Shown here one piece after another: positions 48,262 to 54,396 of a DNA stretch of 64,000 nt. The notes below the pieces were generated by a model. The model saw nothing but the letters and a program-made list of their open reading frames with translations, made no database searches and was not told the DNA's origin. How positions within the stretch are numbered: position 1 is the stretch's first letter; each line of letters opens with the position of its first letter. This DNA comes from Escherichia coli. Lineage in GTDB: Bacteria; Pseudomonadota; Gammaproteobacteria; Enterobacterales; Enterobacteriaceae. The stretch is taken from the NCBI RefSeq assembly GCF_044324785.1, contig NZ_CP172127.1; one strand, given 5' to 3'. The translations under genes and the position numbers were made by a program.

Positions 48262-48593
48262 ATATCGATCTGAGTCGTTTTTTCAACAGGATTTGGAAGG
48301 GATGCATTCAAAGACAAACTCTGCTCTTTCTCCTGCGCCTTTTCTGCCTGCTGTCTTTGCAACTGCGCCAGTTGTGTTTCCAGTAGGGTGATTTGCTGCT
48401 GAATCAATTCGGCCTGTTTTTGCTTGTCTTCAGCACTGCCGCTAGTGTCTGCAATCTCTTTAATTTGTTGAGTGAGTTTGATGATTTGCTGACTTATCCG
48501 CGCAATTTGTGAAGCAACATCGCTACCTTCTGATGCCCTGTTACTACTCTGTGTTTGTATGGAAGGAATTGAAGTTGAAGAGATAGTGGCCAT
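48252..48593 (-). CDS. small Q-rich coiled-coil protein, FlxA-like
   Basis: 113-aa ORF with GAGGA 6 nt upstream of ATG; S/T-rich N-terminus then heptad-like Q/L/I repeats ([18 protein letters not shown]...[23 protein letters not shown]); overlaps the yfeR 3' end by 10 bp. Confidence 0.5.
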
Positions 48594-48681
48594 TGTTCAG
48601 TCCTCGTCACTGTACGAGGTAATATCGGCAGAAGAACAAGGAACTTGAGAAGAAAAATCAATCTTACAAACCGCATATAGC

Positions 48682-48708
48682 AAAAAAGCGCCTTTAGGGC
48701 GCTTTTTT
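48682..48708 (-). terminator. rho-independent terminator of the tRNA operon (palindromic)
   Basis: aaaaaagcgcc ttta gggcgctttttt directly downstream of tRNA-Lys. Confidence 0.65.
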
Positions 48709-48712
48709 ACAT

Positions 48713-48788
48713 TGGTGGGTCGTGCAGGATTCGAACCTGCGACCAATTGATTAAAAGTCAACTGCTCTACCAACTGAGCTAACGACCC
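48713..48788 (-). tRNA. lysV: tRNA-Lys (anticodon UUU)
   Basis: Reverse complement reads GGGTCGTTAGCTCAGTTGGTAGAGCAGTTGACTTTTAATCAATTGGTCGCAGGTTCGAATCCTGCACGACCCACCA. Confidence 0.95.
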
Positions 48789-48792
48789 GAAG

Positions 48793-48868
48793 TGGTGGGT
48801 GATGACGGGATCGAACCGCCGACCCCCTCCTTGTAAGGGAGGTGCTCTCCCAGCTGAGCTAATCACCC
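48793..48868 (-). tRNA. valY: tRNA-Val (anticodon UAC)
   Basis: Reverse complement reads GGGTGATTAGCTCAGCTGGGAGAGCACCTCCCTTACAAGGAGGGGGTCGGCGGTTCGATCCCGTCATCACCCACCA. Confidence 0.95.
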
Positions 48869-48914
48869 ACTTCGGTACTTCACATTTTTACAAGAAATTT
48901 AGCTGGCGAGAAAG

Positions 48915-48990
48915 TGGTGGGTGATGACGGGATCGAACCGCCGACCCCCTCCTTGTAAGGGAGGTGCTCTCCCAGCTGAGCTAATCACCC
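48915..48990 (-). tRNA. valX: tRNA-Val (anticodon UAC)
   Basis: Identical 76-nt sequence to the preceding tRNA-Val. Confidence 0.95.
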
Positions 48991-49034
48991 ACTTCTCAAT
49001 TTCTTGCTACACGGCGGAGACTACATAAAGTAGT

Positions 49035-49110
49035 TGGTGGGTGATGACGGGATCGAACCGCCGACCCCCTCCTTGTAAGGGAGGTGCTCTCCCAGCTGAG
49101 CTAATCACCC
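49035..49110 (-). tRNA. valU: tRNA-Val (anticodon UAC)
   Basis: Identical 76-nt sequence; first gene of the four-tRNA operon. Confidence 0.95.
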
Positions 49111-49127
49111 CCGCTGTGTGGAGTCGC

Positions 49128-49155
49128 ATTATAGGGAGAGTTCAAAATGAGTCAA
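49128..49155 (-). promoter_or_regulatory. sigma70 promoter of the valU-valX-valY-lysV tRNA operon
   Basis: On the minus strand: TTGACT, 16-nt spacer, TATAAT, then GC-rich discriminator gcgactcc. Confidence 0.55.
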
Positions 49156-49368
49156 CGCATTTTCTAAAGAAATTGTTCGTTCGTCGTAAATTTAAGCAAG
49201 ATGATCGCAAAACAGACCGTGTTGCGCAATTTGTCAACGAAAACAATAATGCGTAAGGTTGCAACCCGAACTACATTGAGGAATCAGGCGGGAGTGATAG
49301 AATATCGCCCACTCAATTTTTCCAGGATTTGCCGGTTGTCGGCATCTTTCTAAACGTAAGGCCATTTC

Positions 49369-50784
49369 ATGAAAATCAAAACTCGCTTCGCGCCAAGCCC
49401 AACAGGCTATCTGCACGTTGGCGGCGCGCGTACTGCTCTTTACTCCTGGCTTTTTGCACGTAACCACGGCGGTGAGTTCGTGCTGCGTATTGAAGACACC
49501 GATCTTGAGCGTTCCACGCCGGAAGCTATCGAAGCCATTATGGATGGCATGAACTGGCTGAGCCTGGAGTGGGATGAAGGTCCGTACTACCAGACCAAAC
49601 GTTTTGATCGCTACAACGCGGTGATCGATCAGATGCTGGAAGAGGGCACAGCTTATAAATGCTATTGTTCTAAAGAGCGCCTGGAAGCGCTGCGCGAAGA
49701 GCAAATGGCGAAAGGTGAGAAGCCGCGTTATGACGGTCGCTGCCGCCACAGCCATGAGCATCATGCTGATGATGAACCGTGCGTTGTACGTTTTGCTAAC
49801 CCGCAGGAAGGTTCTGTTGTTTTTGACGATCAGATCCGTGGCCCGATTGAGTTCAGCAACCAGGAGCTGGATGATCTGATCATTCGCCGTACCGATGGTT
49901 CCCCAACCTATAACTTCTGTGTGGTTGTTGATGACTGGGATATGGAAATCACCCATGTTATCCGTGGCGAAGACCATATCAACAACACGCCGCGCCAGAT
50001 CAACATTCTTAAAGCCCTGAAAGCGCCGGTACCGGTTTACGCGCACGTTTCTATGATCAACGGCGATGACGGTAAAAAACTGTCCAAACGTCACGGGGCG
50101 GTCAGCGTAATGCAGTATCGTGATGACGGTTATCTGCCAGAAGCACTGCTGAACTATCTGGTGCGTCTGGGCTGGTCCCACGGCGATCAGGAAATCTTCA
50201 CTCGTGAAGAGATGATCAAATACTTCACCCTGAATGCCGTCAGCAAATCTGCCAGTGCGTTCAACACCGACAAGCTGCTGTGGCTGAACCATCACTACAT
50301 TAACGCGCTGCCGCCGGAGTATGTTGCTACTCACTTACAGTGGCACATTGAGCAGGAAAATATCGATACCCGTAACGGCCCGCAGCTGGCTGATCTGGTG
50401 AAACTGCTGGGCGAACGCTGCAAGACGCTGAAAGAGATGGCACAGAGCTGCCGTTATTTCTACGAAGATTTTGCTGAGTTCGATGCCGACGCCGCGAAAA
50501 AACATCTGCGTCCAGTAGCGCGTCAGCCGCTGGAAGTAGTTCGTGACAAACTGGCCGCGATTACTGACTGGACAGCTGAAAACGTTCATCACGCTATTCA
50601 GGCGACGGCGGATGAGCTGGAAGTGGGTATGGGTAAAGTTGGTATGCCGCTGCGTGTCGCCGTTACCGGTGCGGGGCAGTCTCCGGCGCTGGATGTTACC
50701 GTTCACGCAATCGGTAAGACCCGCAGTATCGAGCGTATCAACAAAGCGCTGGCTTTTATTGCTGAACGCGAAAATCAGCAGTAA
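49369..50784 (+). CDS. gltX: glutamyl-tRNA synthetase
   Basis: 471 aa [49 protein letters not shown] (HIGH-type motif) and KLSKR motif. Confidence 0.95.
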
Positions 50785-50802
50785 TTAGCGCATAAAAGAT
50801 AA

Positions 50803-50832
50803 ACGGCAGGAGAGATACCCCTGCCGTTTTTT
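50803..50832. terminator. bidirectional rho-independent terminator between gltX and yfeD
   Basis: acggcagg agagatacc cctgccgt followed by ttttt. Confidence 0.6.
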
Positions 50833-50834
50833 AT

Positions 50835-51227
50835 TTATTCTGATTCATCTATGTCGAGACGAGCAAGGAAATTACGAATTCCTTCGCGTGACAAAAATTG
50901 CGCAACTTTTTCCTGCTCACTGTGAGTCATGTTGTCTATTGCGCTGATGATTTGCCGATAAGCAGGAGTGCGAATCCCCGGTGCGTATTCGGCAAGGGGT
51001 TCTTCGGCTTCCAGAAGCATCGGCGTGTTATGGAAGGCTGGCGTGTTCTGAATAAACTCGCAAACTTGCGTATCGACCAGAATAAGTCTGGCACGACCGC
51101 CTTTCACGCCAGGAAATTTTTCCGTTTTCCAGCCTTTTTCTCTGATCCAACGGTTAACAGTTTGTTTAGCCACACCGAGGCATTCAGCCAGTTCTTCGGT
51201 GGTCATTTTATTGCGTAATCTTTTCAT
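50835..51227 (-). CDS. yfeD: DUF1323-family putative DNA-binding protein
   Basis: 130 aa MKRLRNKMTTEELAECLGVAKQTVNRWIREKGWKTEKFPGVKGGRARLILVD...; paralog of the adjacent ORF. Confidence 0.75.
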   Translation of the reverse strand: MKRLRNKMTTEELAECLGVAKQTVNRWIREKGWKTEKFPGVKGGRARLILVDTQVCEFIQNTPAFHNTPMLLEAEEPLAEYAPGIRTPAYRQIISAIDNMTHSEQEKVAQFLSREGIRNFLARLDIDESE

Positions 51228-51228
51228 A

Positions 51229-51573
51229 TTATTTGCTATCGCGAATCCCTAAGCGTTGTAATAATCCGATAATCCCTTCCCGCAGAAGCAAGGATGTAAA
51301 CTGTTTTTGTTCAACTGGCGTCATCTCTTTCGCCAGTGTCACCAGCAACACTTCAAGCGGCGCATCACCAGACAGGGCAGGCGCTTCTCCCTGACCTTCT
51401 GGACGTTCAGCATTGCGAATATATTCACGAACCTGTTCATTGACGTGAACCAGTCGGGCTTTGCCACCCTGGACGCCTGGTTTTGGTGACGTTGTCCAGC
51501 CTTCCTTGCGTACCCATTTATTAATGGTCTGGCGGCTATAGCCGGTCAGTCTGGCAAGTTCATCTGGCGTCAT
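51229..51573 (-). CDS. yfeC: DUF1323-family putative DNA-binding protein
   Basis: 114 aa from the internal ATG preceded by AAGGAGAGG (MTPDELARLTGYSRQTINKWVRKEGWTTSPKPGVQGGKARLVHVN...); track ORF extends 5 codons upstream. Confidence 0.75.
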   Translation of the reverse strand: MTPDELARLTGYSRQTINKWVRKEGWTTSPKPGVQGGKARLVHVNEQVREYIRNAERPEGQGEAPALSGDAPLEVLLVTLAKEMTPVEQKQFTSLLLREGIIGLLQRLGIRDSK

Positions 51574-51747
51574 CCTCTCCTTGAACATAACAATTCCCTG
51601 AATGTATGTGGGTCTATTAGTAGTTCATTTTATAACACCACTTTACAGGAAACCGTGACATGAATAACTACTGAATGCGAGCGGTTTTCCAAAATTGTTC
51701 ATTTGCCTGATTTTTCAGCGATTGAAACTACACGTTGCAATTTGCCG

Positions 51748-51776
51748 TTGACACATTCGGGCGGAATTCATATGAT
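51748..51776 (+). promoter_or_regulatory. sigma70 promoter of the alaX-alaW tRNA operon
   Basis: TTGACA, 17-nt spacer, TATGAT, then GC-rich discriminator gccgcccg, about 30 nt upstream of the first tRNA-Ala. Confidence 0.55.
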
Positions 51777-51808
51777 GCCGCCCGTCAACTCGACAAGCTT
51801 TACGTGAC

Positions 51809-51884
<76 letters not shown>

Positions 51885-51923
51885 AATTTTGCACCCAGCA
51901 AATTTGGTACGTAAACGCATCGT

Positions 51924-51999
<76 letters not shown>

Positions 52000-52008
52000 A
52001 ATTTCCAA

Positions 52009-52035
52009 CCCTCGCTGCAAAGCGGGGGTTTTTTG
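52009..52035 (+). terminator. rho-independent terminator after the tRNA-Ala pair
   Basis: ccctcgct gcaa agcggggg followed by ttttttg. Confidence 0.6.
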
Positions 52036-52206
52036 TCTCTGCTTTTTGCCGCTTTTGTAATACAGTCTACGTCCGGGTTAGCGCCGCCTGGTGAAAGCAT
52101 CATTGGATGAAAAATCGGCAACAGGCTGGCCCCTGTTTGCTTCGCGATGCGAATAAACTTATTATTTGTGTGCCTGAAAACCCCGATCAGTGAGAGTAGT
52201 GTACTC

Positions 52207-54396
52207 ATGTTTGTGGAGCATAACCTGATAAAAAATATCAAGATATTCACACTAGCGTTTACGCTCACCGTGGTACTTATTCAGCTATCCCGTTTTATTT
52301 CGCCACTTGCCATTATCCATTCCAGTTATATCTTTCTGGCGTGGATGCCACTGTGCGTAATGCTGTCAATCTTGTTTATCTTTGGCTGGCGCGGTGTCGT
52401 TCCCGTTTTATGCGGGATGTTTTGCACCAATCTGTGGAACTTTCATCTCTCTTTTTTACAGACTGCGGTCATGCTCGGCAGCCAGACGTTTGTCGTGTTG
52501 TGTGCCTGCGCAATATTACGCTGGCAGCTGGGGACGCGTTGGCGTTATGGTTTGACCAGCCGATATGTCTGGCAACGTCTGTTCTGGCTTGGTTTGGTGA
52601 CGCCGATCGGCATCAAATGCAGCATGTATCTTGTGGGGAGCTTTTTTGATTTCCCGCTAAAGATATCCACCTTTTTCGGCGATGCGGATGCCATTTTCAC
52701 AGTCGTTGATTTACTAAGCCTTTTCACCGCTGTGCTGATTTACAACATGCTTTTCTACTATCTCACTCGCATGATTGTAAGTCCCCACTTTGCGCAGATA
52801 TTGTGGCGCAGGGATATCGCTCCGTCGTTGGGCAAAGAGAAACGCGCATTTACCTTAAGCTGGCTGGCAGCGTTAAGCGTGCTGCTACTTCTGCTGTGCA
52901 CACCGTATGAAAATGACTTTATTGCCGGTTACCTGGTGCCCGTTTTCTTCATTATCTTTACCCTCGGGGTCGGTAAGCTCCGCTATCCGTTTTTAAATCT
53001 CACCTGGGCTGTTTCAACGCTTTGCCTTCTGAATTACAACCAGAACTTTTTGCAAGGGGTGGAAACCGAATATTCGCTGGCATTTATTCTCGCAGTGCTG
53101 ATTTCCTTTAGCGTTTGCCTGCTCTATATGGTGCGCATTTATCATCGCAGTGAATGGCTTAATCGCCGCTGGCATTTGCAGGCGCTGACCGATCCGTTAA
53201 CGCTCCTACCCAACTTTCGTGCGTTAGAACAAGCGCCGGAGCAAGAGGCGGGCAAGAGTTTTTGCTGCCTGCGCATTGATAATCTTGAGTTTATGAGCCG
53301 TCATTACGGCTTAATGATGCGCGTTCACTGTATCCGATCAATTTACCGTACGCTGCTGCCGTTGATGCAGGAAAACGAAAAGTTGTATCAATTGCCGGGT
53401 AGTGAACTGCTGTTAGTGCTGAGTGGACCGGAAACGGAAGGGCGACTCCAGCATATGGTTAACATCCTGAATAGTCGGCAAATTCACTGGAACAATACCG
53501 GGCTGGATATGGGCTATGGTGCTGCCTGGGGGCGTTTTGATGGAAATCAGGAAACCCTGCAACCCTTGTTGGGGCAGTTAAGCTGGCTGGCGGAGCAATC
53601 CTGCGCACATCACCATGTGCTGGCGCTGGATAGCAGAGAGGAGATGGTTTCCGGGCAGACCACTAAACAGGTGCTATTGCTGAATACCATTCGTACGGCG
53701 TTAGATCAGGGTGATTTGCTGCTCTACGCCCAGCCAATTCGCAACAAAGAGGGTGAAGGTTATGATGAGATCCTCGCGCGACTGAAATATGACGGCGGCA
53801 TTATGACCCCGGATAAGTTTCTGCCCCTTATTGCTCAGTTTAACCTTAGCGCGCGTTTTGATTTGCAAGTGCTGGAATCCCTGTTGAAGTGGCTGGCAAC
53901 ACATCCTTGCGACAAAAAAGGCCCGCGCTTTTCAGTCAATTTAATGCCGCTCACGCTGCTGCAAAAGAATATTGCCGGGCGGATTATTCGTCTGTTTAAG
54001 CGTTATCACATCTCCCCGCAGGCGGTCATTCTTGAGATCACCGAGGAGCAGGCGTTTTCTAACGCAGAAAGCAGCATGTACAACATCGAGCAACTGCATA
54101 AGTTTGGTTTCCGGATTGCGATTGATGACTTTGGCACCGGCTATGCCAACTACGAACGGTTAAAGCGTTTGCAGGCTGATATCATCAAAATTGATGGCGT
54201 CTTTGTGAAAGATATCGTCACGAATACGCTGGATGCGATGATTGTGAGATCAATTACCGATCTGGCGAAAGCAAAGTCATTGAGTGTAGTCGCGGAGTTT
54301 GTCGAGACGCAACAGCAGCAGGCGCTATTACATAAGCTCGGAGTGCAATATCTGCAAGGGTATTTGATTGGTCGCCCGCAGCCATTAGCTGATTAA
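52207..54396 (+). CDS. pdeA: membrane-anchored c-di-GMP phosphodiesterase (MASE1, degenerate GGDEF, EAL)
   Basis: 729 aa from ATG at 52207 (MFVEHNLIKNIKIFTLAFTL...); N-terminal polytopic region and C-terminal EAL domain. Confidence 0.8.
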   Translation: MFVEHNLIKNIKIFTLAFTLTVVLIQLSRFISPLAIIHSSYIFLAWMPLCVMLSILFIFGWRGVVPVLCGMFCTNLWNFHLSFLQTAVMLGSQTFVVLCACAILRWQLGTRWRYGLTSRYVWQRLFWLGLVTPIGIKCSMYLVGSFFDFPLKISTFFGDADAIFTVVDLLSLFTAVLIYNMLFYYLTRMIVSPHFAQILWRRDIAPSLGKEKRAFTLSWLAALSVLLLLLCTPYENDFIAGYLVPVFFIIFTLGVGKLRYPFLNLTWAVSTLCLLNYNQNFLQGVETEYSLAFILAVLISFSVCLLYMVRIYHRSEWLNRRWHLQALTDPLTLLPNFRALEQAPEQEAGKSFCCLRIDNLEFMSRHYGLMMRVHCIRSIYRTLLPLMQENEKLYQLPGSELLLVLSGPETEGRLQHMVNILNSRQIHWNNTGLDMGYGAAWGRFDGNQETLQPLLGQLSWLAEQSCAHHHVLALDSREEMVSGQTTKQVLLLNTIRTALDQGDLLLYAQPIRNKEGEGYDEILARLKYDGGIMTPDKFLPLIAQFNLSARFDLQVLESLLKWLATHPCDKKGPRFSVNLMPLTLLQKNIAGRIIRLFKRYHISPQAVILEITEEQAFSNAESSMYNIEQLHKFGFRIAIDDFGTGYANYERLKRLQADIIKIDGVFVKDIVTNTLDAMIVRSITDLAKAKSLSVVAEFVETQQQQALLHKLGVQYLQGYLIGRPQPLAD

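Follow-up and report, generated by a model that had tools for sequence, protein, structure and literature searches.

The yfeC-yfeD pair of the Enterobacteriaceae is probably a core operon encoding two paralogous small winged helix-turn-helix transcription factors

The adjacent genes yfeC and yfeD of Escherichia coli probably constitute a two-gene core operon of the Enterobacteriaceae that encodes two paralogous small transcription factors. Its transcription, divergent to that of the tRNA-Ala operon, would probably start at a conserved extended -10 promoter and would end at a bidirectional terminator common with gltX. Ribosomes that finish yfeC, whose stop codon precedes the yfeD start by 1 nt, would then probably go on to translate yfeD. 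Each protein is predicted to place a MerR/excisionase-type winged helix-turn-helix (HTH) domain on DNA, joined by a variable disordered linker to a conserved C-terminal two-helix hairpin, which most likely mediates dimerization. In this model, YfeC would for the most part repress its targets from some tens of sites, and the sites of the faster-evolving YfeD would be largely different ones. Databases and the literature already cover the genes, their family, the DNA binding of their products and a first regulon, and the pair matters little as it stands; it is a known pair of paralogous winged-HTH regulators with a restricted lineage range. What is new is limited to a start codon of yfeC that is probably mis-set and an unusually split variant population of yfeD.

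Organization of the yfeCD locus

The window analysed here is a stretch of 64,000 nucleotides of E. coli DNA, in which yfeD and yfeC lie in tandem between gltX, which converges on yfeD, and two tRNA-Ala(GGC) genes on the opposite strand (Table 1). An earlier note on this DNA, made from the letters alone, had placed these flanks on the correct sides. Several complete E. coli genomes match the segment 50700..51900 at 100% identity and are annotated there with gltX, yfeD, yfeC and tRNA-Ala. The junction of the two genes reads ...AAA TAA T ATG AAA..., in keeping with the 1-bp separation given in the note. A Shine-Dalgarno sequence of its own is absent within 10 nt of the yfeD start; this start lies 1 nt past the yfeC stop, and the translation of yfeD is therefore probably coupled to that of yfeC. 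Downstream of yfeD, the intrinsic terminator has a 12-bp stem in which seven pairs are GC; a T-rich tail lies on the minus strand, and a T run follows the stem on the plus strand, as read from the sequence.

Upstream of yfeC, a block that is conserved in 80 species contains a putative extended -10 element with a weak -35. The consensus promoter scan made no call at this site, and it is from the conserved block that we infer the position of the yfeCD promoter. The promoter of the tRNA-Ala operon alaW-alaX, which adjoins the yfeC promoter region in back-to-back orientation, is of the near-consensus stable-RNA type, with 11/12 matches in the promoter scan, and is conserved across species. When the spacer between yfeC and alaW was searched for repeats, no dyad convincing as an operator emerged; its one good inverted repeat, CGGGCGGAAT/ATGCCGCCCG, belongs to the alaW promoter, of which it forms the discriminator region. 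An Rfam search of 48500..52300 returned tRNAs only.

Beyond the tRNA genes, the mechanically listed ORF of pdeA encodes 749 aa from the first ATG, compared to 729 aa (2190 nt) in RefSeq, and its listed start is probably upstream of the true start. In the E. coli record NZ_OZ547136.1, the 1.2-kb region was matched in three pieces with an IS200C transposase annotated beneath, which indicates an IS200 insertion within or beside the yfeCD region of that strain.

Table 1. Coordinates of the yfeCD locus and its surroundings in the window
Feature	Position	Strand	Remarks
gltX	49369..50784	+	convergent with yfeD
Dimorphic block	50791..51024	-	3' two-thirds of yfeD (linker, C-terminal helices) and terminator loop
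Bidirectional intrinsic terminator	50801..50829	both	common to yfeD (-) and gltX (+)
yfeD	50835..51227	-	130 aa; paralog of yfeC; from the ORF list; Pfam PF07037, E 2e-61
yfeC	51229..51588	-	119 aa from the conserved upstream ATG; PF07037, E 3.6e-51
yfeC as annotated in K-12 (b2398)	51229..51573	-	114 aa, 345 nt; start at 51573
Five codons ATG TTC AAG GAG AGG (M-F-K-E-R)	51574..51588	-	read in the earlier note as a Shine-Dalgarno sequence
Conserved ATTCAGG(G/A)AATTG block	51589..51603	-	4-15 nt upstream of the upstream ATG; 80 upstream regions aligned
Putative yfeCD promoter block TGTCACGgTTTCc..GTAAAgTGGTGtTATAAAAT	51629..51660	-	conserved in 80 species
Putative extended -10 TGtTATAAA	51637..51629	-	for yfeCD; -35 weak
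alaW-alaX (tRNA-Ala) promoter	51748..51776	+	TTGACA-17-TATGAT, then GC-rich discriminator
tRNA-Ala(GGC), two genes	51809..51884, 51924..51999	+	upstream of yfeC, opposite strand
Published "yfeC" ChIP-exo peak, converted	51977..52010		NC_000913.3 2518030-2518063
pdeA, mechanically listed ORF	52147..54396	+	749 aa from the first ATG

Paralogy, family and predicted fold

Pairwise alignment of YfeC and YfeD by BLASTP gave 37% identity over 125 columns with an E value of 1e-26, far past chance, which bears out the tandem paralogy that the earlier note had proposed. The motif block on which that proposal was built (QTxNxWxRxxGWxT, PGVxGGxARL, REGI..L.RL) coincides with invariant or near-invariant columns of the two family alignments. 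Both proteins match the Pfam family PF07037, "Transcription regulator YfeC-like" (formerly DUF1323), over profile positions 1-122 of 122, with scores of 173 bits for YfeC and 206 bits for YfeD against a gathering score of 22.9. The two-part architecture of this family, with an HTH at the N terminus and a conserved REGI..L.RLGI block at the C terminus, is found in the alignments and in the AlphaFold2 model. Generic HTH models (HTH_17, HTH_23, HTH_3 and similar) gave weak, sub-threshold matches to both proteins. A sequence search of the PDB with YfeD returned nothing but a chance match to Pannexin-2 (E ~1), and a search of PHROGs gave weak HTH-level matches only.

The structure of YfeC was modelled by AlphaFold2 from a 113-sequence alignment, with a mean pLDDT of 81. 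Residues 5-60 adopt a strand-helix-helix-strand-wing-strand-helix arrangement that ends in a short helix at residues 51-60, followed by a disordered, unconserved linker (residues 61-77) and a confident two-helix hairpin (residues 78-112). The N-terminal domain is thus predicted to be a winged HTH of the MerR/excisionase type, and the "excisionase-like" SCOP assignment in the supplement of PMC8464067 agrees with this fold. The description of the two products as small DNA-binding proteins is upheld by the predicted winged HTH and by ChIP-exo data for both proteins (PMC8464067).

The start codon of yfeC

The RefSeq PGAP annotation gives yfeC a 119-aa product (360 nt), which differs from the 114 aa of the K-12 annotation. 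The open frame runs up to an in-frame ATG at 51588, 15 nt 5' of the ATG at 51573. In the earlier note, the five codons between the two had been taken as a strong Shine-Dalgarno sequence of the internal ATG; AAGGAGAGG-ATG is literally present there, but it is probably coding, and translation probably starts mainly elsewhere than at the internal ATG.

Conservation of the upstream ATG, and of the peptide M-[F/I/L]-K-E-R-M, holds in 80/80 species, that is, in the best 80 of 195 loci. Across these 80 species, codon 2 is TTC, ATC or CTC, and codon 5 is AGG, CGG, CGA, AGA or CGT, all of which encode Arg, or ATG in two Escherichia lineages; such synonymous turnover of Arg codons is typical of translated sequence. 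An AGG(G/A)A is conserved 7-9 nt before the upstream ATG, and the conserved block that precedes this ATG is likely the ribosome-binding site (AGGG/AGGA) of the 119-aa YfeC. In the AlphaFold2 model, residues 5-6 lie within a β-strand of the DNA-binding domain, and deeper homologs also start with MF(K/R)E(K/R)MT. The conserved ATG, the Arg codon turnover, the AGG(G/A)A, the strand residues and the deeper homologs therefore make the 119-aa form better supported than the 114-aa form, though both starts may be used. The start codon of yfeC in K-12 is thus probably annotated 15 nt too far downstream.

Distribution and evolution

A survey of one genome per GTDB species (100,044 species) returned 195 matching stretches, and the best 80 of these loci all belong to genera of the Enterobacteriaceae. 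The tandem pair and the convergent gltX are kept in 80/80 of the species representatives (best 80 of 195), in the order yfeC, yfeD, convergent gltX in the loci with both flanks available. Identity to the window proteins ranges over 68-94% for YfeC, 44-97% for YfeD and 91-99% for GltX. The yfeC ATG and the tRNA-Ala upstream of it are 216-221 nt apart in most loci, a spacer length that is nearly invariant across genera, and the distance from the yfeC stop to the yfeD start is -20 to +9 nt in 76 species, mostly 1 nt. More distant homologs sit in the same frame, nupC-pdeA-tRNA-Ala-(pair)-gltX-tRNA-Val/Lys.

An exhaustive profile search across 1.84 billion representative proteins gave only 257 matches at E values up to 0.001, including many fragments or unrelated multi-HTH proteins matched in the HTH stretch only. 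No match was found by tblastn in 50,697 phage records. The 13 tblastn matches among plasmids, including records of 1.4-5.4 Mb, appear to be chromosomal sequence filed as plasmids, the smaller records being annotated with the same chromosomal gene. The YfeC-like family is tiny, chromosomal and absent from phages, and these searches gave no sign of mobility.

The dN/dS ratios of yfeC and yfeD, about 0.03-0.2, indicate that both genes are under purifying selection. In the N-terminal domain, mean pairwise identity is 0.88 among YfeC sequences and 0.67 among YfeD sequences, and among 14 outgroup homologs tested, nine were nearer to YfeC and three nearer to YfeD. The slower evolution of YfeC and the mostly YfeC-like outgroups mark YfeD as the derived, faster-evolving duplicate, and YfeC as the conserved, ancestral-like copy.

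Copy number varies in a few genomes. A short metagenomic contig carries a single copy beside gltX. Enterobacter sp. BIGb0383 (L047:3986-5129) possesses three tandem YfeC-like genes of 122, 131 and 128 aa with 4-nt ATGA overlaps, of which the second and third are YfeD-like, indicating a further local duplication. In GCA_000758305.1 (L083:3597-4357) there are two 118-aa copies 47 nt apart, the second of which begins MFKEKMT and resembles YfeC more than YfeD; this pair could stem from an independent duplication, from gene conversion or from divergence that was very fast in that lineage. In GCA_033843265.1 (L091:3501-3899), a dispersed single YfeC-like paralog of 132 aa (P0140) lies away from gltX, between a sulfate-transporter/acetyltransferase pair and DUF2583/pth/ychF.

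Two forms of the yfeD 3' region

Compared to K-12 YfeC (b2398) and YfeD (b2399), the genes of the window are the same, with protein identities of 100% and 93.8%, respectively, and the window carries a non-K-12 allele of the 3' half of yfeD. Within the dimorphic block, the two sequences differ at ~45 positions (~19-21% divergence), compared to 0.5% in the HTH part of yfeD and 1.4% in yfeC; dS of gltX is 0.09. This divergence changes about nine residues, which are located in the linker and the first hairpin helix of YfeD. Among 5,426 complete E. coli genomes, identity to the window allele of yfeD is bimodal, being at least 95% in 2,243 records, 80-90% in 3,129 and in between in 55, and yfeC is at least 95% identical in all 5,426.

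The K-12-type block differs by 1.6-3.7% from that of E. whittamii and two other Escherichia lineages, whose yfeC is 9-10% from that of K-12; the window-type block has its nearest counterpart in E. albertii, 13% away. The pattern looks like a short-block exchange between species, or an old polymorphism. A bolder version, which we hold to be improbable, is that the C-terminal half of YfeD is kept as two old allele classes (~20% diverged, in roughly 41% and 58% of genomes), one of which moves between Escherichia species. If true, the two classes would point to balancing or partner-driven selection on the pairing of YfeD with itself, with YfeC or with another partner. As it stands, the dimorphism is a modest population-genetic curiosity that could help direct experiments toward the binding partner of the C-terminal hairpin.

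Published binding sites, deletion phenotypes and autoregulation

Gao et al. (2021) applied ChIP-exo to tagged YfeC and YfeD and reported 50 YfeC and 36 YfeD sites (PMC8464067). An inverted-repeat motif was enriched for YfeC (E 7.1e-10), 205 genes changed in RNA-seq of a yfeC deletion, and among the directly bound genes 20 changed, of which 16 went up (PMC8464067). The same paper recalls an earlier screen that linked yfeC deletion to more extracellular DNA. A transposon study of strain K1 found a gut-colonisation defect of the yfeC deletion, and an EHEC study found it without effect on LEE expression. RefSeq names K-12 YfeC a "DNA-binding transcriptional dual regulator" and YfeD a "putative DNA-binding transcriptional regulator".

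That the two genes form a small regulatory pair is supported, in that both proteins act as regulators (ChIP-exo, PMC8464067). A poorly defined function no longer describes YfeC, given its 50 sites, deletion transcriptome and RefSeq name, but it still describes YfeD, to which no role is assigned despite 36 sites; prior functional assignment thus covers one gene of the two. The suggested link to the neighbouring stable-RNA operons and gltX finds no support: synteny is conserved, but neither list names gltX or genes of the val/lys or ala tRNA operons as nearest, and the one peak in the vicinity falls on the 3' end of the distal tRNA-Ala. The earlier interpretation was thus largely right and is out of date.

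There appears to be noise in the ChIP-exo site lists. Of the YfeC sites, many are intragenic (40%) or located at very highly expressed genes (rpmH, rpmB, rpsU, rplU, lpp and a tRNA gene), and most YfeD sites are merely 8-10 bp wide. A TTCCGGAA-like palindrome is present in 3/10 of the strongest YfeC sites (four matches at no more than one mismatch, versus 0.53 expected).

In the published list, yfeCD is a direct YfeC target with a peak at 2516052-2516085, and yfeD rises 20-fold in the K-12 yfeC deletion (log2 fold change 4.3; PMC8464067). The peak coordinates refer to NC_000913.2, as the methods of that paper state. The abgR, dtpB, yajI, adrA and ychN sites match their named genes only after the NC_000913.2-to-.3 offset, and the coordinate system was validated with six other sites. 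After conversion, the "yfeC" peak sits on the 3' end of the distal tRNA-Ala gene (alaX) and its terminator. In K-12 the yfeC start is ~400 bp away from this position, and pdeA starts ~200 bp downstream of it; in the window, the peak position is ~140 bp upstream of the start of the pdeA-frame ORF. The published YfeC site list has no peak within the conserved yfeC promoter block. In a scan of the yfeC promoter for the TTCCGGAA-like element every match had at least two mismatches, so a self-operator is unsupported. With the peak at alaX and a promoter that has neither peak nor motif, the case for autorepression therefore comes down to the expression change, which makes it plausible; the 20-fold rise of yfeD could reflect either autorepression or a polar effect of the deletion construct. 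What has been published as YfeC autoregulation is thus built on a peak at a tRNA gene, away from the yfeC promoter.

Both site lists include genes related to c-di-GMP turnover and biofilm, namely dgcC/adrA, pdeN/rtn and bluF among the YfeC sites and pdeG and bcsC among the YfeD sites (PMC8464067 Dataset S4). In the part of the yfeC-deletion RNA-seq data covered here, dgcC is unchanged (PMC8464067). The position of the "yfeC" peak upstream of the conserved neighbour pdeA and these recurring c-di-GMP genes would fit a role in the control of biofilm and extracellular DNA, a weaker lead than the yfeD alleles.

Separate, joint or architectural action of YfeC and YfeD

The published site lists barely overlap, which argues for YfeC and YfeD acting mostly separately. 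Among the 50 YfeC and 36 YfeD rows, the overlap consists of the ispB-sfsB locus, which occupies three rows across the two lists taken together and provides one identical peak start (PMC8464067). The shared peak start would fit a heterodimer or hetero-oligomer joined through the C-terminal hairpins, a single regulator with two different DNA-reading heads; so would the tight coupling of yfeC and yfeD in all species examined and the conservation of the C-terminal block L..REG....L.RL between the paralogs. Moreover, a fusion model of YfeC and YfeD from paired alignments packs the two hairpins together, though with moderate confidence (pTM 0.52) and run without a homodimer control, so that it supports the hairpin as a pairing module compatible with homomeric and heteromeric assembly alike. 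Set against the barely overlapping lists, the much faster evolution of YfeD and the lineages with one or three copies, a partnership of this kind seems to us unlikely. It is less likely still, and in our view improbable, that the two proteins are small architectural, nucleoid-associated-like binders of the Xis/BldC/RacA type that cooperatively coat or bend DNA with low sequence specificity, the published regulons being largely indirect or ChIP artefacts. The closest structural relatives are indeed Xis, the pSK1 Par DNA-binding domain, BldC and RacA, all of which bind repeated sites cooperatively, and the intragenic sites, the sites at hyper-expressed and tRNA genes and the scarcity of the TTCCGGAA-like element among the strongest sites would agree with it. 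However, the enriched motif and the finite set of 50 sites (PMC8464067) speak against it, and the conserved C-terminal domain is an extra that Xis and BldC lack.

RASTA-Bacteria (2007) predicted yfeD/yfeC as a toxin-antitoxin module, with a high-confidence rank (PMC2374986). This type II reading is invited by the small size of the two-gene operon, its tight spacing and the presence of an HTH protein, and weak sub-threshold matches to YdaS_toxin (PF15943), itself an HTH family, could be cited for it. Nevertheless, YfeC and YfeD are paralogs with the same HTH fold instead of two unrelated proteins, in Pfam and NCBIfam every toxin family stays below its cut-off, and the PADLOC matches are weak and at HTH level only. 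In addition, the locus belongs to the syntenic core genome, with no phage match and with plasmid matches that are apparently chromosomal. Deletions of yfeC have been made in K-12, K1 and EHEC backgrounds and used for RNA-seq and infection assays; the growth rate of the K1 deletion is reported as indistinguishable from that of its parent, and yfeD rises 20-fold in the K-12 deletion. Paralogy, the missing toxin family, the non-mobile locus and the viable deletions effectively refute a toxin-antitoxin module, to which we give next to no credence. Two paralogous regulators with largely separate sites remain the preferred reading.

Comparison with known DNA-binding families

The RefSeq product name of yfeD is "MerR family transcriptional regulator". 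However, the MerR profiles PF13411 and PF00376 are not among the Pfam matches up to E 0.1. In MerR proteins, the wing is followed by a long antiparallel coiled-coil helix and an effector-binding domain, both of which are absent here; in the YfeC model, the coiled coil is replaced by the disordered linker and the short helical hairpin. "MerR family" is therefore a superfamily-level label that overstates what the sequence supports. MerR regulators act by DNA distortion at promoters with an over-long spacer of 19-20 bp, whereas the published YfeC motif is an inverted repeat with 6-nt spacing.

Compared to the excisionases, YfeD scores 27.5 bits and YfeC 18.7 bits against TIGR01764 ("excise"), for which the curated cut-off is 28.8. 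Unlike genes for Xis, yfeC and yfeD have no adjoining integrase (in all species examined they neighbour gltX, tRNA genes and pdeA), lie outside mobile elements and are absent from phage genomes, and relative to Xis and BldC (HTH_17, TIGR01764) their products carry an additional C-terminal domain. The likeness to the N-terminal domain of lambda Nu1-type terminase small subunits and to the DNA-binding domain of the Mu repressor is limited to the DNA-binding domain, and the gene context of yfeCD is unrelated to DNA packaging or transposition.
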